DNA from: an uncultured cyanobacterium
Lineage (GTDB): Bacteria > Cyanobacteriota > Cyanobacteriia > Cyanobacteriales > CAWCAG01
Direction of reading: 5' to 3'
Assembly (NCBI GenBank): GCA_963793425.1
Contig: CAWCAG010000009.1
Span: forward strand, 320,001-384,000
DNA: 64,000 nucleotides
Of this stretch, positions 5,169-27,388 are shown in pieces. The position numbers were made by a program, and so were the translations under genes. Within the stretch, counting starts at the first letter, position 1. Every line of letters starts with the position of its first letter. Under the pieces are notes generated by a model that saw only the letters and a program-made list of their open reading frames with translations, ran no database searches and was not told where the DNA came from.

Positions 5169-6743
5169 ATGCAAGATTCAACTAAACAGTCAATCCGGTT
5201 AGAAAACAACTTGCAACAGTTAAGCGAACAAAACCAGCGTTTATCTGCCCAAGTTAAGCAATTAGTGAAAACGGAGAGTGAACTTCATGCTTCTCGAAAT
5301 AAGTTAGATTACCAGATTAGTATTTATCGACAACTTTATGAAATTGGTAAGCAGTTTAATAATACTTTTAATGTTGAAGAAATTCTCGGTTTAATGCCTC
5401 ATTTTGTTCTTTATGAGCTTAACTTTGAGCGTTGTTTAATTCTCAATTATAGTCAGGAGCAAGATTGTTTTACGCCTTTGCTCTGGGATGGTTATTATGA
5501 AGAGCAAGAAACCCAGCATCTCAAAAAATTACAGTTTGATTTAGGAAAATCAGGCATCTTTTCTCTTTTTTCCCTGGCTGAGTATTTGATGTGCGCTCCC
5601 GATTATTATCATAGTCCTAATTTACAGAAACTATGCGCTACTTTCGGTATGGAAGAATACGTTCTTTTTCCGTTAAGTATAGAACAGCAGCAGCCCAAAA
5701 TATTATTATTAGTCGGAAATACTTCAGATAACGCCCAATACCATTCCCGTGTCGAGCCAGAAGGGGATTTTATTCTTGGTTTAGCAAATTTAGTTAGTCA
5801 AGCTTCTATTGCTATTAAACAGTGTCAATTATACAAACAAGTTCACAGCAAAGCCTATGAGTTAGAAGAAACTATTAATAAACTAAGTAATGCTCAATCC
5901 CATTTAATTCAAACTGAGAAAATGTCTAGTTTAGGACAATTGGTTGCTGGCATTGCCCATGAAATTAATAATCCAGTTAATTTTATTTTTGGCAATCTTA
6001 TTTATGCTAGCGAATATACCAAAGATGTCTTGTCACTCCTACATTTATATCAAAGAAAATATCCTCAATACGATGAAGAAATTCAAGCTGAGACAGAAGA
6101 AATAGATTTAAGTTTTATTGAAGAAGACTTAGAGAGACTATTGCAATCTATGCACATGGGCGCTAGTCGCATTCGAGATATTGTGATTTCTTTACGTAAT
6201 TTTTCTCGTCTTGATGAATCTAATCTTAAGCAAGTAGATATTCATTCTGGTATTGATAGTACCTTAATGATTTTGCAAAATCGTTTTAAGGTTCAAGCTG
6301 GTTATCCTGTGATTCAAGTTGTTAAGGAGTATGATTGTTTGCCTTTGGTGGAGTGTTATGCTGGGCAACTTAACCAAGTGTTTATGAATATTCTTAATAA
6401 TGCTATTGATGCTTTAGAAAAAGCTATAGAGAAAGGAGAAATGAAGCACAAAGTTCCCACAATTCGGGTTTATACTCAAGGTATTTTTGACCAGAATGGG
6501 GAGGCAGATCGAGTGGTTATTCGTATTGTTGACAATGGGGTAGGAATGTCACCGGAAGTACAACGGAAAGTTTTCGATCCTTTCTTTACGACAAAGCCTG
6601 TAGGCAAGGGAACAGGTTTAGCTATGTCTATTAGTTTCCAGGTGGTTACGGAAAGGCATGGTGGTTTTTTGAAGTGTTCTTCTTCTGTGGGAGAAGGTAC
6701 AGAATTTACTCTGGAAATTCCTTGTAAGCAAAACTTTATTTAA
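5169..6743 (+). CDS. Sensor histidine kinase (GAF-like + HisKA + HATPase)
   Basis: AGIAHEINNP H-box, NILNNAID, DNGVG, PFFTTKPVGKGTGL. Confidence 0.92.
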   Translation: MQDSTKQSIRLENNLQQLSEQNQRLSAQVKQLVKTESELHASRNKLDYQISIYRQLYEIGKQFNNTFNVEEILGLMPHFVLYELNFERCLILNYSQEQDCFTPLLWDGYYEEQETQHLKKLQFDLGKSGIFSLFSLAEYLMCAPDYYHSPNLQKLCATFGMEEYVLFPLSIEQQQPKILLLVGNTSDNAQYHSRVEPEGDFILGLANLVSQASIAIKQCQLYKQVHSKAYELEETINKLSNAQSHLIQTEKMSSLGQLVAGIAHEINNPVNFIFGNLIYASEYTKDVLSLLHLYQRKYPQYDEEIQAETEEIDLSFIEEDLERLLQSMHMGASRIRDIVISLRNFSRLDESNLKQVDIHSGIDSTLMILQNRFKVQAGYPVIQVVKEYDCLPLVECYAGQLNQVFMNILNNAIDALEKAIEKGEMKHKVPTIRVYTQGIFDQNGEADRVVIRIVDNGVGMSPEVQRKVFDPFFTTKPVGKGTGLAMSISFQVVTERHGGFLKCSSSVGEGTEFTLEIPCKQNFI

Positions 6744-17235: not shown

Positions 17236-18984
17236 ATGAATAGACCTGTTATTATTTGTGTTGATGATGAACCAATTATCTTAGAGAGCTTGGCAAGAGA
17301 ATTATACCAAGTTTTGGGGGATGATTATCTCATTGAAACTGTAGAAACTGGGGAAGAAGCATTAGAGCTAGTTGAAGAATTTTTAGCAGAAAAGTATCAT
17401 ATTCCCCTAGTTTTGTCTGATTATATTATGCCCAATATTAAGGGGGATGAATTACTCAAACGTATTCATGAAATTGCGCCTCAAACCTTAAAAATTTTAC
17501 TTACAGGGCAAGCTAGTGTTGAAGCAATCGGTAATGGGATTAAGTATGCTAATCTATATCGTTATCTAGCTAAACCTTGGCAACAAGAAGACCTTAGTTT
17601 GACTGTTACTCAAGCGATTCATAGTTATTTCCAAACCCAAAAATTAGCTGAGCAAACCCTCGAACTTCAGCGATTAAATCAGCAGCAAGCAAAACTAATT
17701 ACTCAACTCAATGAAAACAGAAATCGCTTAATTCAATTTTTAGAAGCGATACCTGTGGGAGTGGGGGTAATGGATGCAGAAGGTAAACCTTATTATGTTA
17801 ACCAAAAAGCTCAAGAATTATTAGGTAAAGGTATTTCTCCAGAGGTTAATTATCAGAATTTAGCCCAAACTTATCAGGTTTATAAAGCAGGAACAAACCA
17901 AATTTATCCAGCAGAAGAATTTCCGATTGTTAAAGCCTTGCAGGGAGAAGCGTCTATGGCAGATGATTTAGAAATTCACTTGGATAATAAAGTTATTCCC
18001 ATCGAAACTTGGGCAACACCAATTTATGATCAACAAGGGAATGTTATTTATGGCATTAATGTTATGCAAGATATTAGCGATCGCCAAAAAGCTGAGTTAG
18101 AAAGGGCTAAATTTACTCACGAACTTTTTGAGCTTAATCTTGCTAATGAACGCTTTGTTCCTCGGCAGTTTCTGCAACTATTAAATAAGCAAAGTATTGT
18201 TGATGTGGAATTGGGAGAGTCGGTACAACAGGAAATGTCAGTGCTTTTTGCGGATATTCGTAACTTTACTACCCTAAGTGAAAAGATGACTCCCCAAGAT
18301 AATTTTAAGTTTATTAATTCCTATTTCCTTTGTATGGAACCAGCAATTATTAATAATAATGGTTTCATTGATAAATATATTGGCGATGCGATTATGGCTC
18401 TTTTTGGGGGTAGTGCCGATGAAGCGATGCAAGCTGGTTTAGCAATGTTGAATTTGTTAGCTGAATTTAATGATAACAACCCGCATTTAGATAATTTACC
18501 TGTACAAATTGGTGTTGGCATTAATACAGGTTCTTTAATGTTAGGAGTTGTGGGAGGACAATTTAGAATGGATAGTACTGTAATTAGCGATGCAGTTAAT
18601 TTAGCTTCTCGTATCGAGAAATTAACGAGAGAATATCAGGCATCCTTTTTGATTTCTCACCATACTTTCTCCCGCCTTGAAAATCCAGAAGATTATGCTT
18701 TACGCCGCATTGCGAAAGTAAGGGTTAAGGGTAAGTTAGAAGAGGTGACTGTTTATGAAGTTTGTGCGGCTGATTTACCAGAAGTTAGGGAGAAAAAGTT
18801 AGCGACAAAGGAGTTATTTTCTCAAGCTTTAGGTTTTTATGAATGTCAATCTTTTTTAGCAGCAAAACGCTTGTTTCAAGAATGTTTAAAGCAAAATTCT
18901 CAAGATAAAGTAGCGCAAGTTTATTTAAAAAGTTGCTGGGGACAATCTAATTTTTTAGGGGAAGTTCTTGGCTGCGATCGCTAA
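17236..18984 (+). CDS. Receiver-PAS-class III adenylate/guanylate cyclase
   Basis: ICVDDE receiver, PAS, VLFADIRNFT, DKYIGDAIM, SDAVNLASRIE. Confidence 0.92.
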   Translation: MNRPVIICVDDEPIILESLARELYQVLGDDYLIETVETGEEALELVEEFLAEKYHIPLVLSDYIMPNIKGDELLKRIHEIAPQTLKILLTGQASVEAIGNGIKYANLYRYLAKPWQQEDLSLTVTQAIHSYFQTQKLAEQTLELQRLNQQQAKLITQLNENRNRLIQFLEAIPVGVGVMDAEGKPYYVNQKAQELLGKGISPEVNYQNLAQTYQVYKAGTNQIYPAEEFPIVKALQGEASMADDLEIHLDNKVIPIETWATPIYDQQGNVIYGINVMQDISDRQKAELERAKFTHELFELNLANERFVPRQFLQLLNKQSIVDVELGESVQQEMSVLFADIRNFTTLSEKMTPQDNFKFINSYFLCMEPAIINNNGFIDKYIGDAIMALFGGSADEAMQAGLAMLNLLAEFNDNNPHLDNLPVQIGVGINTGSLMLGVVGGQFRMDSTVISDAVNLASRIEKLTREYQASFLISHHTFSRLENPEDYALRRIAKVRVKGKLEEVTVYEVCAADLPEVREKKLATKELFSQALGFYECQSFLAAKRLFQECLKQNSQDKVAQVYLKSCWGQSNFLGEVLGCDR

Positions 18985-19465: not shown

Positions 19466-19948
19466 CTAAACCTCTGCGCCGGATTTTGGCTCTGCACCAG
19501 CCCCAACTACAGCATCTCTGAGGACAGTAATTTGTTGCTGAAACTCCATTGCTTCAATCTGAGATAGAACTTGATTGACACTACCACTAGGCTTATAATC
19601 ATCCGGTACAGGAACAATTGTTCCTGCATCCATTCCCTGTGCCAAACGATACCAGAAGTATAATTTAGTGTTTTCGCTTAAGGAACCATACTCACGGGAA
19701 ATAAGAGTATCTTGCCCTTCAATAATCTTACGTTGTGCATCCAGTTGTTCTTCAAAAGACAACTCTTTAACTTGATCAAACAATCCTTCAGCAATTTTGT
19801 CTCCGGCTGCCCCAGGTGCGGCGGGGGTTACGGATGTTCCCATCTTCTTGTAAACATACCAAAGAAGAGCTAATTTTTCATCTGTAGATAGGTTACTATA
19901 GCTGCTTAATACGCCATCAACACTTTGTTCTGAACTAGCTGTACCCAT
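19466..19948 (-). CDS. Helical carotenoid protein (OCP N-terminal domain homolog)
   Basis: DEKLALLWY, TPAAPGAA, ISREYGSLSENTKL.FWYRLAQGM. Confidence 0.92.
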   Translation of the reverse strand: MGTASSEQSVDGVLSSYSNLSTDEKLALLWYVYKKMGTSVTPAAPGAAGDKIAEGLFDQVKELSFEEQLDAQRKIIEGQDTLISREYGSLSENTKLYFWYRLAQGMDAGTIVPVPDDYKPSGSVNQVLSQIEAMEFQQQITVLRDAVVGAGAEPKSGAEV

Positions 19949-20170: not shown

Positions 20171-20581
20171 TTATTGTAGACCTAATAATTCCTGTGGTGA
20201 TGCCAGTAACTTAATCTTAATCGTCGTAATTTGCTGATCTGAATTTAAACAGAAATGCCAAGCGACATTAACGCTAAACAAAGGAGTTTTAACCTTTCCT
20301 GTCACCTTAATCGTTTCTAAATCATCTTCATTTAACTCGTATATTCCTTGTTGTGGCAATAACTTCATCCCCTTAGCTTCCTTGCTTAAATAAGATGCGA
20401 TCGCCTCCTTCCCAAGGATAGGTTTTTCAAAGGGTGCTAATAATTCTCCTTCTTCAGCAAATAAAGCGGCAGTTTCAATAAATTTTCCGTGGTTAATGGT
20501 GACAAAGTAGTTGATAATAACTGGCTCTTCTATATTTTCAATTGTGATAAAATCTTCTGTTTGGGTTTCGATAGAACTCAT
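20171..20581 (-). CDS. NTF2-like OCP C-terminal domain homolog (CTDH)
   Basis: ALFAEEG.L.APFE.PI.G, VTGKVKTPLFSVNVAW.F, KLLASPQEL; adjacent to HCP. Confidence 0.88.
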   Translation of the reverse strand: MSSIETQTEDFITIENIEEPVIINYFVTINHGKFIETAALFAEEGELLAPFEKPILGKEAIASYLSKEAKGMKLLPQQGIYELNEDDLETIKVTGKVKTPLFSVNVAWHFCLNSDQQITTIKIKLLASPQELLGLQ

Positions 20582-20685: not shown

Positions 20686-21186
20686 ATGACAGATCCACTA
20701 TCTCTATCAGCAGCAGCGATCGCAGCTTTAGCATTTACCAAAATGCTGGAGAAAACAGTAGAAAAGTTCACAGAAGGCGCACTTTCTAAGATGGATGAAC
20801 TACGTCAAAAGATTTGGCAGAAGTTGCGAGGTAATCCTAAAGCAGAAAAAGCTCTTACGGCAGTAGAAGAGGGTAATAAAGAAGAAATTCAGCGACTAGC
20901 TGTATATTTGCAAGATGCTATGGAAGATGATCCGCAATTTGCCAGTGAAGTTCAAGTAATGGCGCAAGAAATTAATGCAGGTAAGCTACAAGATAACAGC
21001 ATAATGAATCAGAATAACTACGACAATAGTACTGGTTATCAAACTAAAAATGAAGGAGGAACCAACTTTGTTGGTGGAAATCACTATCACGGCAATCCTC
21101 CTCTTGAAGAGTGCAAACTAAAAATGAAGGAGGAACCAACTTTGTTGGTGGAAATCACTATCACGGCAATCCTCCCTCTTGACTAG
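20686..21186 (+). CDS. Bell/HeLo-like small helical protein with a C-terminal N/Q/G-rich (amyloid-like) motif; 3' end altered by a tandem duplication
   Basis: MTDPLSLSAAAIAALAFTK...LRQKIWQKLRG...DPQFASEV, then MNQNNYDNSTGYQTKNEGGTNFVGGNHYHG. Confidence 0.65.
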   Translation: MTDPLSLSAAAIAALAFTKMLEKTVEKFTEGALSKMDELRQKIWQKLRGNPKAEKALTAVEEGNKEEIQRLAVYLQDAMEDDPQFASEVQVMAQEINAGKLQDNSIMNQNNYDNSTGYQTKNEGGTNFVGGNHYHGNPPLEECKLKMKEEPTLLVEITITAILPLD

Positions 21187-21189
21187 AGT
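21040..21189 (+). repeat. Tandem direct repeat (~73 and ~76 bp) encoding QTKNEGGTNFVGGNHYHGNPP
   Basis: Copy 1 at 21040-21112 and copy 2 at 21114-21189 are identical except for 3 extra nt in copy 2. Confidence 0.95.
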
Positions 21190-22122
21190 CGCCTGAGTCG
21201 GAACGGGCAGAGTTAAATCCACAGAGAAAGAATAGGCGAGGGAAAACTTTAAAAGCTAACCTACTCAAGATTATCAAAGAGCAAGTAGAGACATGGCAAG
21301 AGGAAGCTTTACGTAATCGGGTTTATGTTGTCCCAGATAAAGATAAAAACCAAAGCCAAGTTGCACCTACTCTAATTCTTGAGGTTAAATCTGGTTCTAA
21401 ACCAAAAGAAACTCTACCGAAAAGTACTCATATCATTGATGTATTTCAGAGAAAAGGAGTTAATGGCAGGTTGCTTATTTTAGGTGAACCTGGGGCAGGT
21501 AAGACTACTATGCTATTTGAGTTAGCCAAAGTATTAGTGCAACGTGTAGAAACAAACTCAAACCATTGAAGCTTTGGGGTGGTCATGGAGTAGGGTTGTT
21601 GCTCATCTATTCGGTATTTTTATTGGAGGAGCAGTTCTTTGGCTAGCTGGAGGTTACTTTCTAGGAATCATGGAAGGATTAATTTTTGGATTTGTCTCAA
21701 TGGTCATTGCCGCAATCATTATTGGTTTGGGTGAAGATAGAATTGTGACAACTATAAAGGCAAATCAAGGTATCTGGCAGTCTCTGAGAAATGGAATTTT
21801 CTTTGCTTCGATTGGAGTGTTAGGAATAGGACTATTTGCTTTTTTGACAGATGTACCTATCTTTAACGCAGCAGTTATTGGACTTATTTTCGGCTTGTTT
21901 CAGGGATTTCCAGGCTGTCTCCAACACTTTATTCTCCGTCTCATCCTCTACTCCAACAACTACATCCCCTGGAACTACGCCCGCTTCCTCGACTACGCAG
22001 CAGATCGCATCTTCCTCCAAAAAGTAGGAGGCGGCTACATCTTCATCCATCGAATGTTAATGGAACACTTTGCCCAGATGGAAATGAAGCAATTGAAAAT
22101 TAAAACTTATCTGAAGCAATAA
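21111..22122 (+). pseudogene. Disrupted NACHT-transmembrane NLR (N-terminal motif + Walker A, core deleted, TM/C-terminal part retained)
   Basis: GTG at 21111, in-frame TGA at 21180, then LLILGEPGAGKTT, stop at 21569. Continues in another frame as TIEALGWSW...IPWNYARFLDYAADRIFLQKVGGGYIFIHRMLMEHFA. Confidence 0.8.
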
Positions 22123-22429: not shown

Positions 22430-24493
22430 ATGAGTCAGACCAATAAAGATAATAGCGGAAACTGGCAAAACTCTCCCTTAACCCCTAAAGAATATCGGAA
22501 GCGTCAGGACTTACTTACCAAAGTTAAGAACTTTTGGGTTAAAGGAGTTTTAGAAAAATCTTTCCACAACCAAGCATTAATAGAGTTGGGCTTAGAGGAA
22601 AGCCCAGATACAGTGGCTTACCTTGGGAATATTATTTTAGAAACCGAGGATTTCTTACCCCGACCCCTCACTGAAGCTATTAAAGTTATCGATATCTTTA
22701 AGGGAAATAATACAGAGGAAAGTCTCTTAATTTTGGGGGAACCAGGTTTAGGAAAAACCACAACTTTGTTGCAACTCGCCCAAGATTTAATTAGCCGCGC
22801 TGAACAAGATATTAATCTACCAATTCCTGTAGTTTTTAATCTCTCTGCTTGGAACAACAAACCGCAGAAGATAGAAGACTGGTTAATAGAAGAATTGGCT
22901 ACTAAGTATGATGTTCCCCAAGCAATTAGCAAAACTTGGCTTAAGAAACAGCAAATACTACCTTTACTTGATGGTTTAGATGAAGTTGAGGTAGATTATC
23001 GAGATAATTGTATTGCTACATTGAACCAATTTAAGCAAGATTATGTTACAGGGTTAGTGGTGTGTAGTCGCAGTAAGGAATATGAAAATCTTTCTAATCG
23101 TTTAAACTTTCAAACTACAGTCTCTTTACAACCACTTACTTTAGAGAAAATTTGTGGTTATTTAGATAGTTTAGCTGCTGAATTAACAGGATTGAGAAAA
23201 TTAATCGCAGAGAATTTGCTATGGCAAAAATTAGCTCAATCTCCTGCAACTCTCAATATCATGGCTTTAGCTTATCAGGGAGTAAAGTTTGAAGACTTAC
23301 CACAATTTGAAGCTAGAGAAGATTATCTTGATAAGTTACTTGATGACTATGTTGAGCGAAGACTTAAGCATATTCATCCTGCCAAAATTACTCCCAAGTA
23401 TTCAGAATCTCAGACTAAAATTTGGCTAAGCTGGCTGGCAAAAAAGATGATGGTGCAGGAATCTAAAACTGTATTTTTAATTGAGATGATGCAGCCTCGG
23501 TGGTTGAAAACCAGGTGGCAAAAATTACTGTATAAAGCAGGAGTTAAAATAGCCATTGCTTTGGTTTTGTTTGGTACTGCCAAACTGAGTGGTTTGCTAA
23601 TTCCTACTTTTGAAAGTTTTGTCTCTATGACGATGAATTTTGTGGCAATTCTTTGTATTATCGTTCTGAAAAAGAAAGGTAATCTAATTTCCGACTTAAA
23701 AGGAGGATTACTCATCCAAGCAATTTTTTATGCAATTGGTTCTATGCCAATAATGTTGATATTAATATGTATCAATGCATTTTTTATCTTAACTGAAAAC
23801 CTCTCTAACGCAGAAATACAGCCATTAGCAACTTTCAAAATAGAACCCCAACAAATAAATAAAGAGTTGACTTTAGCTTTAATGGGTGGAATAGTCGTAG
23901 GACTGATTGTTTGCTTGGGGATGATAACTTCCTTCCGCCCAATTGTGATCGGAGTAAGTGCAGGTTTAAGTTTGATTAGTGGTTTAGCTGGCACACTGCT
24001 ATTTCTATTAGTATTCGGCCTCATTGGTAGGTTAGTTGCTTCCCACAATAAAATGAGCATCACACCTAATCAAAGCATTAAACAATCAGCCACTAACGCC
24101 ATCGTAGCCACTCTATTTTTAGGACTAGTTAGTAGTTTGGCTATGGGGTTAATATTTGGCCCTTTTTGGGAAGTTATCATGCCCCAAGAACTACCAAATC
24201 TCATGGCTCCAACCCCTAAATTAGAACTATTTTTGAGTAGGTTATCTGTATTTAGTGCTTTCATGTTAGCTATTTTCCTGAGCTTTGGTTCAATCGGAGG
24301 ATTGCTTTATGGAGGAATAACTTGCATACAGCATCTCATCCTTCGCCTTGTCCTCTACTGCAACAACTACATCCCTTGGAACTACGCCCGTTTCCTTGAC
24401 TATGCAGCGGATCGTCTCTTCTTACAAAAAGTCGGGGGAGGCTACATCTTCACCCATCGGATGTTGATGGAACACTTTACCCAAATTAAATAA
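22430..24493 (+). CDS. NACHT NTPase with C-terminal transmembrane helices (bacterial NLR-like)
   Basis: Walker A GEPGLGKT, Walker B LLDGLDE, multiple TM segments, conserved IPWNYARFLDYA...GGGYIF.HR tail. Confidence 0.9.
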   Translation: MSQTNKDNSGNWQNSPLTPKEYRKRQDLLTKVKNFWVKGVLEKSFHNQALIELGLEESPDTVAYLGNIILETEDFLPRPLTEAIKVIDIFKGNNTEESLLILGEPGLGKTTTLLQLAQDLISRAEQDINLPIPVVFNLSAWNNKPQKIEDWLIEELATKYDVPQAISKTWLKKQQILPLLDGLDEVEVDYRDNCIATLNQFKQDYVTGLVVCSRSKEYENLSNRLNFQTTVSLQPLTLEKICGYLDSLAAELTGLRKLIAENLLWQKLAQSPATLNIMALAYQGVKFEDLPQFEAREDYLDKLLDDYVERRLKHIHPAKITPKYSESQTKIWLSWLAKKMMVQESKTVFLIEMMQPRWLKTRWQKLLYKAGVKIAIALVLFGTAKLSGLLIPTFESFVSMTMNFVAILCIIVLKKKGNLISDLKGGLLIQAIFYAIGSMPIMLILICINAFFILTENLSNAEIQPLATFKIEPQQINKELTLALMGGIVVGLIVCLGMITSFRPIVIGVSAGLSLISGLAGTLLFLLVFGLIGRLVASHNKMSITPNQSIKQSATNAIVATLFLGLVSSLAMGLIFGPFWEVIMPQELPNLMAPTPKLELFLSRLSVFSAFMLAIFLSFGSIGGLLYGGITCIQHLILRLVLYCNNYIPWNYARFLDYAADRLFLQKVGGGYIFTHRMLMEHFTQIK

Positions 24494-24958: not shown

Positions 24959-27388
24959 TTAATTTTGCTTCTGTTTGATGACATCAATAGGTAACAGCAA
25001 AGTTTCTTCAATTTCTTGGCGAACTTCCGGGCTTACATAACAGTCTTGATGTAAAGATTGAGTTAATAGTTGGTTGGCATAATAATATTGTTTTAGTAAT
25101 TCTTTTTGTTGGTTGCTAAATTGCCAATCATGACCAATATTGCGATATTTAATTATGATTTTTCTTAAATCTTCTCTCCAAGTATTACCGTTAGCTTTCC
25201 ACCACTGCTTCAATTCTTTTTTACTTATCCTAGCAGGAAGCTGATTATTAAGTCTTCGTATTTCTCGATGTAGTTCACGATCAATTTCTTGCGACAGTTT
25301 GAGAATATATGAAAGTTTGAGACTTCGCGAGAAGTAGGAAGCTTGCGAAAAGCCAGGAGGTCGCGGGAAGTTTCTTGAGTCGAGGGTTAAGAAGAGGCTA
25401 ATATTGATATCTATGTTGAAAGAATTAGAAAGGGAGAAGTAAAGAAGTGCATCAAGGTCAACATTGATATCAGTACTAAAGTTTGTATCAATTTTAGACA
25501 ATAAAGATACATAAACAGGTACAGAAAGTGTGCGAGATAAGGAGCTAGGAAGTTTGAGAGCTTGGGATTGACATGAGAGATAGAGGTGAAAGTAAAGGCA
25601 TCGAGAAAGAGACAGTTTCATATCGGGATAGAAATCAATCTTCTCCTGAACTTTTGAAATATCTTCTTGCTTAAAAGTAATATTTTCAGCTACAGTTTTC
25701 TCATTTAACCGCTGTAAAAATCGTTGTATTTTCTCATCCTCCGCCAATAAATAATCAATCTTTTCCTTCATCAATAAAACTAACTTTTCTCCATTGGGAG
25801 ACATAGCCACCGCCAACAAAAACACTTCACGCCAGCGTTTATCAAAAATATGATTAACTAATTCTTCTAATGCTTGATCTGAAGATTGACGAACTTGAAT
25901 GATTTTCCTGGCAGTAAAGTATTCTTGAAAAGTTAAATGAGAGAAAGAATAAATATGTTTTGCCCTTTCTACTAACAAGCCATGTTGTGATTCAATAGAC
26001 TTTAAGACAACTTCACTATCAAGTTTTAAAGCTGCTTCATCAGTATTAGCCCCAGGTAAATTACGAATATATTCCCCAACATATCTTTCTACCTTGTCTT
26101 GTTTAAAGAAATATTCTCCCGGTGCAAAAGTATCCCAAGCAATCTTACTCAACAAGTCTTCTTTCCTTTGTATCCACAGTTTTTGATAAACTTCATCTCG
26201 TTGAATACCTCGCTTAGCATCCCATTTTTTCAACAGTGCATCCAAGCCCTCTTTATACAAACCAGCACGATTGCCAGGAAAATCACCAGACTCTTCAAAT
26301 ACCAAACAAAGTAAAGTAAGCAATAAAGGATTGGTAGCTAATTCTTGAATCGGTTCATCTTTTTCTAAGCGGCTTAAAAAGCTTTCTGGTTTAACTGGTT
26401 TATGCTGAAACCAATTAGTAGCAAAAATAGTTATTTGTTCCCAATCAAAATCAGCGATTTCTACTTCAGTAAATTGCTCAAAAGTGTATTCCCGTGCTGC
26501 AATACGACAAGTTAGTAAATATTGATTGCGAGAAAAGTTGGCGGAGAAATCGCGAATTTCCTTAATAACCCTTTTACTATCTTCTTGTAGTACTTCATCT
26601 AAACCATCAAAACAAATTAAAGCTTTACCTTGTTCTAAAAGCTGCTGTAAATTTTCTCTATCTTGTTTCTCAAGATACCTACCAATATAAGTTAATAATC
26701 TTGGTTGATTTTCTGCTTCGGCAAAGTCTTTGAGAGTAATAAAAAACGGTACTAAATCACCGTGAAATAAACCGCGATTGCATTGAATAACTAAATGCTT
26801 AAGGAAAGTTGTCTTACCAGCCCCTGGCTTACCTAAAATAAGTAGAGTTCGATATTTATTAACAGCTTCTTTACCTGGTATCTTTTCCTTTTCGATTTCT
26901 CCAAAATTGAAACGGTTAAAATTCTCGAAATCACAACTTTCAATCAACTCAGCAATTTCTTTACGCCTACGCCCGCTAATTTTTTCTAGGATATTAACTT
27001 TAGTATAAATATCATTCAAACCCACGGGCTGACTCATATCCAAAATTCGCATTGTGCCGCAGCGAGTTTCGATATCTTCTTTTACTTGTTCGCGAAACTT
27101 GTTAACTAAAAAAGAAATATCTATTGCTGATTTTTCTGACTCTAATTCTATCTGGTTAACAGCACTTTCTTCTAAACCTGTAACTTCTTGCCAATCTACA
27201 TCAAGTATTTCACAAATACGAACAAAAAGTTCACAATCTACTGCCTTGCCGTTAAAGAATTTAGAAATTGGCTGGCGAGTACAACCCAACCTTTCAGCAA
27301 TGGCTTTTTGAGTTATATTTTTACGTATTCTGGCATCTTTAACAACTTCAATATATGCTTCTAAAACTTGATGCGATCGCTTAGCCAT
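24959..27388 (-). CDS. XRE-HTH + NACHT NTPase with C-terminal helical domain
   Basis: N-terminal TQKAIAERLGCTRQPISKFFNG HTH, GKPGAGKT, CFDGLDE, FSHLTFQEYF, RNIGHDWQFS tail. Confidence 0.92.
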   Translation of the reverse strand: MAKRSHQVLEAYIEVVKDARIRKNITQKAIAERLGCTRQPISKFFNGKAVDCELFVRICEILDVDWQEVTGLEESAVNQIELESEKSAIDISFLVNKFREQVKEDIETRCGTMRILDMSQPVGLNDIYTKVNILEKISGRRRKEIAELIESCDFENFNRFNFGEIEKEKIPGKEAVNKYRTLLILGKPGAGKTTFLKHLVIQCNRGLFHGDLVPFFITLKDFAEAENQPRLLTYIGRYLEKQDRENLQQLLEQGKALICFDGLDEVLQEDSKRVIKEIRDFSANFSRNQYLLTCRIAAREYTFEQFTEVEIADFDWEQITIFATNWFQHKPVKPESFLSRLEKDEPIQELATNPLLLTLLCLVFEESGDFPGNRAGLYKEGLDALLKKWDAKRGIQRDEVYQKLWIQRKEDLLSKIAWDTFAPGEYFFKQDKVERYVGEYIRNLPGANTDEAALKLDSEVVLKSIESQHGLLVERAKHIYSFSHLTFQEYFTARKIIQVRQSSDQALEELVNHIFDKRWREVFLLAVAMSPNGEKLVLLMKEKIDYLLAEDEKIQRFLQRLNEKTVAENITFKQEDISKVQEKIDFYPDMKLSLSRCLYFHLYLSCQSQALKLPSSLSRTLSVPVYVSLLSKIDTNFSTDINVDLDALLYFSLSNSFNIDINISLFLTLDSRNFPRPPGFSQASYFSRSLKLSYILKLSQEIDRELHREIRRLNNQLPARISKKELKQWWKANGNTWREDLRKIIIKYRNIGHDWQFSNQQKELLKQYYYANQLLTQSLHQDCYVSPEVRQEIEETLLLPIDVIKQKQN

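Follow-up and report, generated by a model that had tools for sequence, protein, structure and literature searches.

Why should a stop codon stand in frame between a small effector that ends in an amyloid motif and the NTPase encoded right behind it, and is such a stop damage or design? The question is raised by a locus in a 64,000-nucleotide (nt) stretch of DNA from an uncultured cyanobacterium of the lineage CAWCAG01 (Cyanobacteriales; GenBank assembly GCA_963793425.1, contig CAWCAG010000009.1, positions 320,001 to 384,000 of the forward strand), hereafter the window, whose own numbering is used throughout. Here, a Bell-type effector gene whose product carries a bacterial amyloid signaling sequence of class 9 (BASS9) is separated by a TGA at 21180..21182 (+ strand, context TGA-CTA-G) from the frame of a NACHT-type NOD-like receptor (NLR). 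The original prediction took the locus for a partly decayed two-gene pair, with an identical motif on both effector and NLR. Comparison with related loci, many of which have the same layout, leads to a different answer: the in-frame stop is a conserved design in the relatives, not damage, and it is followed by a conserved RNA element.

An in-frame stop codon conserved among relatives

A total of 79 genome loci were read from the tblastn start of the effector to the first stop and onward. In 30 of them, the same frame continues past the stop, through a linker with the pattern L-[EQK]-[SP]-[SP]-..-ER-.-K-.-NP, into a STAND P-loop of the NB-ARC, NACHT or GGFGKS type. Three further loci (L003, L009, L011) lead in frame into other open reading frames (ORFs), two (L001, L017) have the linker and a frame that breaks soon after, and three (L014, L024, L047) are in frame by coincidence, their NLRs having an ATG and a motif of their own. 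The remaining 41 show no continuation; they include 20 Nostoc-type loci in which the NLR has a separate gene ~8 nt downstream that brings an ATG and a motif copy of its own; this is the published two-gene design. Among more distant Bell paralogues, the in-frame design was found in 8 of 17 loci (L085 repeats L070), one of them, L081, with an in-frame TGA in this very genome.

Candidate start codons for a separate NLR lie far from the stop in most of these loci. In the in-frame genome loci, the first ATG, GTG or TTG stands 18-52 codons past the stop, apart from four exceptions weighed below, and at seven loci the first ATG after the stop is that of the M in the P-loop motif GMGGxGKT. Across 59 sites, the distance is 16-52 codons in all but eight, the further exceptions (counted from 0) being L136 (codon 0), L132 (codon 5), and L124 and L125, whose P-loops lie beyond codon 51. 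NCBI starts one such NLR, P0130, 13 residues before the P-loop and another, P0128, at the codon right after the effector stop (M-QSPERERAKL), from which it follows that public annotations of NLRs behind in-frame stops are systematically wrong at the N-terminus. A polypeptide in which motif, linker and NLR are joined is viable, given that two examples exist: the NLR of a two-gene pair, P0135, consists of its own motif, an arginine and then the linker (...GGSGNNITFN-R-IQAPDWERLKLNPP), and P0122 is a stop-less Bell-BASS-ESPKSERVKLNPP-NB-ARC fusion.

Two side observations concern loci of this layout with unusual partners. In L003 (6409-6870), L009 (6415-7941) and L011 (6412-6831), stop and linker lead to an ORF without a STAND P-loop, and the frame in L009, 509 amino acids (aa) long (494 aa from its first TTG), appears kinase-like by eye; the recoding cassette may serve other partners too. 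Moreover, the genome of the window holds a second Bell-like gene (L081, G000:C1:358834-359145, - strand) with another motif, ...NVQLGDKNVEIKEVKGDANF. The gene ends in TGA-CTG, after which another 370 codons are open in the same frame, the P-loop being at codon 61; its sequence past the stop is unlike the RNA model described below, and a CUGCG/CGCAG hairpin can be seen there by eye.

An RNA element behind the stop codon

Directly behind the stop lies a predicted RNA element, delimited by a covariance model (R1) and by covariation. In the window it occupies 21183..21224 (+) and comprises an 8-nt spacer, a stem S1 formed by 21191-21195 (GCCUG) and 21204-21208 (CGGGC), and a possible pseudoknot stem S2 formed by 21198-21202 and 21218-21222. 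R1, which covers the stop and S1, matches the window site with 50 bits (E 2.7e-9), and this site is its sole match in the genome.

The 45 nt from the stop onward form a gap-free alignment of 32 sequences, in which S1 corresponds to columns 12-16 with 25-29. In this alignment, 83% of the S1 cells are paired, as opposed to at most 39% with a slid partner, 17 cells show double changes, and the covariation score of 0.35 (versus 0.21) was reached by none of 500 shuffles. The stem occurs as GCCCG/CGGGC, GUCCG/CGGAC, GUCAG/CUGAC, GCCUG/CAGGC and GUCGG/CCGAC, and the encoded residues change in step (P..A, S..T, S..D). Five sequences with a 9-nt loop (L049, L052, L053, L066, L067) appear unpaired in fixed-column counts and are covered by a register-aware count, according to which S1 is formed with its full 5 base pairs (bp) in 31 of 38 sequences and with at least 4 bp in 36 of 38 (0 of 2000 permutations). 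The loop of S1 can in turn pair with a C-rich stretch ~10 nt further on: in 34 of 38 sequences, this S2 consists of 4 or more contiguous pairs (0 of 2000 permutations), and it switches between GGGG/CCCC, CGGCA/UGCCG, CGGUA/UACCG and CCGGA/UCCGG. A role of the G-rich loop as a Shine-Dalgarno sequence was considered and rejected, as no start-like codon follows it in any frame of the consensus (by inspection).

The distribution of R1 agrees with that of the in-frame layout. A scan of 892,201 bases of loci gave 40 matches. Effector stops account for 38 of them (37 and, with E 0.18, that of the truncated L001), the window's own site and an unrelated weak match (L034:814, E 0.16) make up the rest, and the 20 Nostoc-type two-gene loci gave none. 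An even sample of 150 further genomes from the class yielded R1 at 21 places in 18 genomes (19 of 151 with this genome counted). Each of the 21 sits at the stop codon that closes an open frame of 121-292 codons, mostly 121-177, with an in-frame continuation to a P-loop. The coding part of these frames begins with MEP-, MDP- or a similar hydrophobic start and has varied amyloid-like tails. Within this replicate, 98% of S1 is paired, and 20 double changes were counted (0 of 500 shuffles).

Overall, covariation argues for S1 as an RNA stem and, with moderate support, for the S2 pseudoknot. That the in-frame stop and the RNA element together constitute a conserved functional design is, in our assessment, highly probable.

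Stop codon context and the proposed readthrough

The stop at the 59 sites is strongly biased: TGA occurs at 54, TAG at four and TAA at one, with TGA-C at 48, and the following codon is a CUN leucine codon at 51 (CTG 25, CTA 21, CTC 5) and GTG at three. For comparison, among 1837 long ORFs of this genome TGA ends 21% and TGAC 1.9%. The sequence behind the stop has two parts. Over codons 15-50, pairwise differences by codon position amount to 0.51/0.34/0.63 (18 loci, 153 pairs; P-loop at codon 51), which is a coding pattern, seen upstream of any start codon; over codons 1-14 they are 0.33/0.29/0.24, the third position being the least variable, as would be expected under an RNA-type constraint.

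These data bear on two ways of explaining the stops without any recoding of the kind proposed below. Plain nonsense mutations in former Bell-NLR fusions would turn the loci into pseudogenes, with the conserved nucleotides reflecting no more than the protein linker, and it fits this idea that Bell occurs as the N-terminal domain of some NLRs (Dyrka et al. 2020, preprint 10.1101/2020.01.06.895854), that the window's own locus is decayed, and that the stop-less fusion P0122 exists. Against it stand the position of the stop, which is the same at 59 sites in many genera while the flanking motifs and NLR types vary, downstream frames that are open for hundreds of codons, the TGA-C bias of 48 in 59 relative to 1.9% in the long ORFs of this genome, and paired columns that covary with residue changes (P/A, S/T, S/D) along with third positions that are the least variable in codons 1-14; we regard this explanation as very improbable. 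The second is that TGA is read as selenocysteine or under an altered code, with the hairpin acting like a selenocysteine insertion sequence (SECIS). A bacterial SECIS does present its hairpin shortly past an in-frame UGA, yet no selB scored over the family cut-off in any of the five genomes searched, this one included, TAG or TAA takes the place of TGA at 5 of 59 sites, and TGA is an ordinary stop for 21% of the long ORFs here, so that this possibility is hardly credible.

What the stop context does suggest is inefficient termination. According to work attributed to Poole et al. in 1995, UGAC is reportedly the weakest termination signal in E. coli. In mammals, termination at UGA_C has been described as weaker and UGA_CUAG as prone to readthrough (PMC9841425); the latter's letters, TGA-CTA-G, are those of the window and of 11 among the 32 aligned sequences, the difference being that the mammalian signal was demonstrated for eukaryotic ribosomes and eRF1.

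On this basis, we propose that the mechanism of the in-frame design is programmed stop-codon readthrough, which we consider marginally better than an even bet. Most ribosomes would terminate and release the free Bell-BASS effector, whereas a minority, aided by the RNA structure on the 3' side and by the weakness of the UGA-C context, would read through and produce a Bell-BASS-linker-NLR fusion. Upon sensing its trigger, the NLR part would oligomerize, and the clustered BASS segments would nucleate an amyloid fold; this fold could then template the identical BASS of the free effector, whereby the N-terminal helix of Bell would be released, leading to membrane damage and cell death. A templating step of this sort has been put forward for BASS pairs and demonstrated for HET-S/NWD2 and Bab/Agp. 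In such a scheme, one motif copy would serve both partners, and the rate of readthrough would set their ratio. A bolder and less likely extension is that readthrough is conditional, for instance upon phage-altered termination or suppressor tRNAs, and hence itself part of sensing.

The rival that deserves most weight holds that two proteins are made: the effector is terminated, and the NLR is initiated separately by termination-reinitiation, either at the CUN or GUG that adjoins the stop or at a different non-canonical codon, with the RNA structure holding or pausing the ribosome. The NLR would then lack the amyloid motif and communicate with the effector in some other way. Such coupling has been described for bacteria (PMC6728339), the TAA and TAG variants would be easier to explain, the codon after the stop is CTG at 25 and GTG at three of the 59 sites, and NCBI annotates P0128 from exactly that codon. 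However, at 26 of the 59 sites the codon after the stop is CTA or CTC, neither of which is known as a start, no Shine-Dalgarno-like start context was noticed, and the RNA element occurs only where the NLR has neither motif nor start of its own. In the two-gene relatives P0135, P0242 and P0166, furthermore, the motif precedes the same linker, so that an NLR starting at the linker would be deprived of the part that defines the system. We judge separate initiation unlikely, though clearly less so than the alternatives considered above.

Returning to readthrough, a number of observations weigh against it and against the structures said to assist it. Readthrough is something that we infer from sequence alone. 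The stop is TAA at one site and TAG at four, both harder to read through than TGA; a GTG lies within five codons of the stop in L052 and L067 (first codon) and in L018 and L063 (codon 5); the annotation of P0128 leaves room for independent initiation; and the P-loop of P0122 is degenerate, so that this fusion may be a pseudogene. As to the RNA, S1 has only 5 bp, S2 is 67% paired in fixed columns, retains only three pairs in the window and receives modest support from the replicate (at least 4 bp in 17 of 21 sites; 13 of 2000 permutations), and RNAalifold predicted no pair for the 32-sequence alignment. Folded singly, five examples did not exceed shuffles in stability (z -0.23 to -1.16, one +0.04), and the fold of the window sequence includes S1 but is likewise no stabler than shuffles. 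In addition, the loci are homologous and the replicate was picked by a model that rewards pairing, so that the counts are not independent events.

With these points set against the evidence above, the account as a whole, from the duplication and decay in the window to readthrough of a conserved in-frame stop, is the best explanation available and a reasonably probable one, this grade being a compromise. Whether a large share of cyanobacterial Bell/BASS-NLR loci are single translational units with pseudoknot-assisted UGA-C readthrough is, in our estimation, an even chance. The literature searched contained no report of an in-frame stop or of readthrough in Bell/NLR loci, and the term 'stop codon' is absent from the text of the 2020 preprint; as far as that literature goes, the design of conserved stop plus RNA element is undescribed.

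The effector: a Bell-like domain with a BASS9 motif

The effector of the window belongs to a family with 230 homologues at E<=1e-3 among 433 candidates. Nearly all of the 120 homologues listed are cyanobacterial or metagenomic, and they are mostly 134-151 aa long; typical members have ~139 aa and stop just past the motif. Family alignments place the start at ATG 20686 (MTDP.. against the consensus MEPxTLTA) rather than at TTG 20620. The N-terminus of the window protein, MTDPLSLSAAAIAALAF, corresponds to the family consensus MEPxTLTAxAIATLAF, a hydrophobic helix, with an acidic residue at position 3 in the window; a hydrophobic N-terminus with an acidic residue at position 2 or 3 is given as a defining feature of the Bell domain in the 2020 preprint, and the stretch at the N-terminus in the Bab/Bell type has been named 'MEPIS' (preprint 10.1101/2024.11.07.622273). 

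Residues 1-100 (20686..20985, +) form the putative alpha-helical Bell-like domain, as indicated by an AlphaFold2 model and by 71% identity to P0035. The model, based on 55 sequences, has helices at residues 9-16, 18-21, 30-47, 51-61, 66-81 and 83-98, with block means of the predicted local distance difference test (pLDDT) of about 80-88 over residues 31-100; disorder is predicted for the motif, with pLDDT below 50. An all-alpha domain of ~100 aa in a protein of 120-140 aa, the size characteristic of Bell, is what the model gives, the 166 aa in the window being due to a duplication described below.

The motif, K100-P139 (KLQDNSIMNQNNYDNSTGYQTKNEGGTNFVGGNHYHGNPP; 20983..21102, +), is of BASS9 type according to alignments and to the published class. 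The C-terminal 30-mer of P0035, NVGKLLDNSNMTQNNYDNSTGYQTKVETEK, is exactly an entry in the Bell-side motif set of class Ccya03 (supplement file 1 of PMC8086366), and the README of that supplement maps Cya03 to BASS9. The corresponding segment of the window, AGKLQDNSIMNQNNYDNSTGYQTKNEGGT, aligns with class members such as HAGRLVDNSNMTQNNYDNARGWQTKVEGGT, an assignment that comes from alignment and not from the profile hidden Markov model score of the authors. The view that the window encodes a Bell-type effector with a published bacterial amyloid motif was thus borne out, and sequence comparison supports a Bell-type effector carrying BASS9 and adjoining NACHT NTPases with hydrophobic C-terminal halves.

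BASS9 appears to be a modular tag, since an alpha/beta-hydrolase, P0126, carries a motif of 89% identity at its C-terminus. P0126 and P0127 are 318-aa alpha/beta-hydrolases (PF05057/PF12697) with a C-terminal BASS9, lipase-like alternative effectors reminiscent of the fungal SesB. Other arrangements were also seen: in P0123, Bell-BASS9 is fused directly to CHAT and TIR domains, and in L010 (2712-3761) it bears an extension of ~210 aa instead of ending past the motif.

Neither Pfam nor NCBIfam returned a family for the effector, DUF7607 and NCAB1 lying far below cut-off and no Bell model being present in either library; a profile of the effector searched against PDB sequences gave a designed repeat protein and an apolipoprotein at chance level and no more. 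Several results tell against the assignment and its functional meaning. Foldseek found no match for the effector model in PDB with E<=1e-3, VIA-align wide reached a best Z of 4.7 to unrelated helical proteins, and the fold searches thus yielded no link to HeLo, MLKL or Bab; the amyloid experiments described in the text of the 2020 preprint concern BASS1 and BASS3, with BASS9 not among them.

Close relatives are few. A metagenome scan gave 22 loci, most of them short and none more than 73% identical, five of which (L101, L107, L109, L110, L115) duplicate genome loci, and P0003 is a relative of the effector at 80% identity. No orthologue is present in G001, a genome of the same genus (best E 6e-8), which therefore allows no close synteny check.

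A private duplication in the window

The ORF at 20686..21186 (+; 166 aa) comprises the helical N-terminal part and then the motif MNQNNYDNSTGYQTKNEGGTNFVGGNHYHG. A second frame from GTG 21111 begins with VQTKNEGGTNFVGGNHYHGNPPS, meets the TGA at 21180-21182, remains open through the Walker A motif GEPGAGKT (21483-21506), and ends at TGA 21567-21569; these letters stand in the window just as the original prediction read them. Its description of the effector as a small protein ending in the motif applies to the homologues of ~139 aa, which do stop past it, but not to the window, where the ORF runs on for 30 residues (NPPLEECKLKMKEEPTLLVEITITAILPLD), the last 27 of them after P139, to a TAG at 21184-21186.

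Both features trace back to an exact 62-nt direct repeat, 21040-21101 and 21114-21175, with a start-to-start spacing of 74 nt; given such a repeat, the identity of the motifs is not due to chance. Beyond it, after a 1-nt gap, TCTTGA matches as well. Relative to copy 2, the end of copy 1 has one C fewer in a run of C, and CT is missing too (an alignment by eye resting on a weak 5-nt match). The extra 74 nt (21040..21113, +) consist of repeat copy 1 and a 12-nt junction that contains the GTG at 21111-21113, and the effector gene originally ended with copy 2 (21114..21182, +; QTKNEGGTNFVGGNHYHGNPPS plus TGA), as judged from the repeat, the run contigs and the end of a database protein, P0002. Alignment with homologues accordingly assigns residues 1-139 of the window ORF to the ~139-aa family and the last 27 residues to junk from the duplication, that is, to the junction and copy 2 read in another frame.

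The duplication is missing from independent data. Five public runs are listed for 20900-21700, and the four that contain at least 88% of the sampled words come from one study. When the Logan contigs of these four DNA runs were compared with the 801 bases of this interval, 21039 was joined straight to 21114 in all four, the 74 nt being skipped, with 0 differing letters otherwise; 21062-21088 was covered by no contig in any run. P0002 (162 aa; two member sequences, three contigs) equals the window protein from TTG 20620 and ends in ...GGNHYHGNPPS. Contigs built with k=31 can collapse repeats, which counts against this part of our account; the caveat is weakened by the fact that a collapsed repeat should still leave the junction words as a short contig, and there was none in the four runs. 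The 74-nt tandem duplication of the effector 3' end is private to this assembly, and it could have arisen as a recent mutation or as an error of long-read assembly, both of which fit. With the duplication removed, the window shows one frame: the Bell-like helical domain, the BASS9 motif ending in ...GNPPS, the TGA, the linker LESPESERAELNP and the first NACHT (NACHT1).

The idea of a HET-S/NWD2-like two-gene pair, with a NACHT protein started at GTG 21111 and motif copies kept identical by gene conversion, has to be judged in this light. The letters of the window permit it, in many relatives, the 20 Nostoc-type loci among them, two genes do each encode the motif, and a duplication of this kind is a plausible route from the in-frame-stop type to such pairs. 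For the window itself, however, the end of copy 1, the junction and the GTG are missing from the contigs of all four runs and from P0002, copy 2 holds the second half of the motif only, a TGA still separates it from NACHT, the NACHT frame is truncated past Walker A, and the effector would be deprived of its natural stop. This model is scarcely likelier than the poorest of the explanations already discussed. The claim that effector and NLR each carry an identical motif hence did not survive, the second copy and its GTG being products of the 74-nt duplication; what was found in the window is only a local duplication, an outcome that the original prediction had itself listed as refuting.

The NACHT genes and their decay

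NACHT1 is present in two pieces. The N-terminal fragment (21183..21569, +; 128 aa) contains the linker LESPESERAELNPQ..., a pre-NACHT region and the Walker A motif, and is cut short by the premature TGA at 21567-21569. It matches residues 1-126 of locus L002, where the frame is intact and 591 aa long, with 61% identity; P-loop families score below cut-off on it, and Walker A is the only NACHT motif kept. The C-terminal fragment lies in another frame (21574..22122, +), has a hydrophobic Gly/Leu-rich region and a conserved tail (...IPWNYARFLDYAADRIFLQKVGGGYIF), and is 42% identical to residues 394-587 of NACHT1 in L002; 158 nt of it are 83% identical to the end of NACHT2, and no Pfam or NCBIfam family matched. 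From the portions of the L002 protein to which the two fragments correspond, about 267 residues were deleted between them.

NACHT2 (22430..24493, +) is an intact NACHT protein of 687 aa with a hydrophobic C-terminal half (Pfam NACHT 1.5e-8, over cut-off). Its N-terminus, MSQTNKDNSGNWQN (22430-22471), represents the first half of a BASS9-like motif, 14 residues long, and in comparison with NACHT2 of L002 (MKQDNRDNSKNWQTTNTGGTNYVGEIHFHGNEQNSPL...) there is a 20-residue gap in the motif core.

Locus L002, from a metagenome-assembled genome of Symplocastrum torsivum, shows what an intact counterpart looks like: it is syntenic, and its effector is 73% identical. Bell-BASS9 occupies 6001..6420 and ends in TGA, the same frame goes on for 591 codons (NACHT plus hydrophobic C-terminal half), and a second NACHT gene has its own N-terminal BASS9-like motif, MKQDNRDNSKNWQTTNTGGTNYVGEIHFHG. 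The region around its stop, ...NQPPT-TGA-LEPPKSERAKSNPQ..., parallels the unduplicated window, ...GNPPS-TGA-LESPESERAELNPQ..., and in both, NACHT1 has no motif or start of its own and lies in frame behind the effector TGA. A motif on the effector and on an adjacent NLR, as originally proposed, is found in relatives (NACHT2 of L002 and the 20 Nostoc-type loci) but not in the window, where NACHT1 has none and NACHT2 only 14 residues.

The suspicion that the locus is partly decayed proved right, NACHT1 having lost about 267 residues and NACHT2 20 motif residues. The run contigs without the duplication carry the truncated NACHT as well, so the decay is real. A tblastn search with the motif against the whole genome returned only the two window copies; given the losses in both NACHT genes and the lack of a further BASS9 copy, the effector is left without a competent partner, and the module is very probably dead in this genome. 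Taken jointly, the account of the window (duplication, family membership and decay) is in our view very likely correct. The locus is of a known kind, Bell/BASS9/NLR, in decayed form, and its key feature is the private duplication.

Relation to known systems

The published Bell/BASS9/NLR pairs (Dyrka et al. 2020) are the closest comparison. As described there, they share with the loci studied here a helical effector of ~100 aa with a hydrophobic, acidic N-terminus, the cyanobacterial host, an N/Q/G-rich C-terminal motif of ~30 aa (Ccya03), and an adjacent collinear NACHT or NB-ARC gene. The NLR of a published pair comes with a start and a motif copy of its own; in the unduplicated window and in 30 of 79 relatives it has neither and lies in frame behind the stop and the RNA element. 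Unlike those pairs, the window's copy is decayed.

Fungal HET-S/NWD2 is similar in that an NLR templates the amyloid motif of a membrane-targeting helical effector encoded next door (as summarized in the 2020 preprint). There is no detectable sequence or fold match, and the motif belongs to another family. To our knowledge, the proposed single-frame expression coupled by readthrough has no fungal counterpart. The E. coli Bab/Agp system (BASS11, 'Babybell'), for which a role in abortive infection was demonstrated, likewise has a small helical effector, with a 'MEPIS' helix cupped by four helices and a C-terminal amyloid motif common to the partner encoded by the adjacent gene (10.1101/2024.11.07.622273). 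In contrast, Bab has only ~80 aa, its motif and partner type are different, and two separate genes are involved (10.1101/2024.11.07.622273); the relation is one of description, the structure searches having given no match.

For the expression mechanism, the nearest analogy is the gag-pol region of murine leukemia virus, in which an 8-nt spacer precedes the pseudoknot. There, too, a stop is followed by a long in-frame ORF and a compact 3' RNA structure, and a major short product is made along with a minor fusion product (PMC5009743); the differences are the eukaryotic viral origin, UAG in place of UGA, a larger pseudoknot and the lack of homology. In the literature searched, no chromosomal case of pseudoknot-assisted readthrough in bacteria was found.

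Neighboring genes

Directly upstream of the effector, on the opposite strand, lies a carotenoid pair. A helical carotenoid protein (19466-19948, -; Pfam Carot_N, 7.9e-59) adjoins a 136-aa ORF without Pfam match (20171-20581, -), possibly its counterpart, a homologue of the orange carotenoid protein's C-terminal domain. Further upstream, 17236-18984 (+) encodes a 582-aa protein with response-regulator receiver, PAS-like and adenylate/guanylate-cyclase-like parts, as seen by eye from the translation. Downstream, convergent with NACHT2, is a third NLR (24959-27388, -; 809 aa), which is intact and consists of HTH_3, NACHT and NCH2 (NACHT C-terminal helical domain 2, 3.9e-36).

Implications

The window itself is ordinary matter, and what it teaches is caution in reading tandem repeats that occur in a single assembly. 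The in-frame stop of its relatives has wider consequences. Published screens for amyloid signaling seek the motif on both proteins and would miss loci with an in-frame stop, 30 of 79 here; gene callers, for their part, assign late, arbitrary start codons to the NLRs behind such stops, in some cases within the P-loop region as for P0130, or else the codon after the stop as for P0128.

If readthrough is true, it would be a simple answer to how templating motifs are kept identical and how the stoichiometry of receptor and effector is skewed, and it would represent a rare, testable and conserved chromosomal case of stop-codon readthrough stimulated by RNA structure in bacteria. The two-gene BASS pairs would then probably descend from the in-frame design, and the duplication in the window, real or artifact, is the kind of event that could turn a single-frame design into such a two-gene pair.

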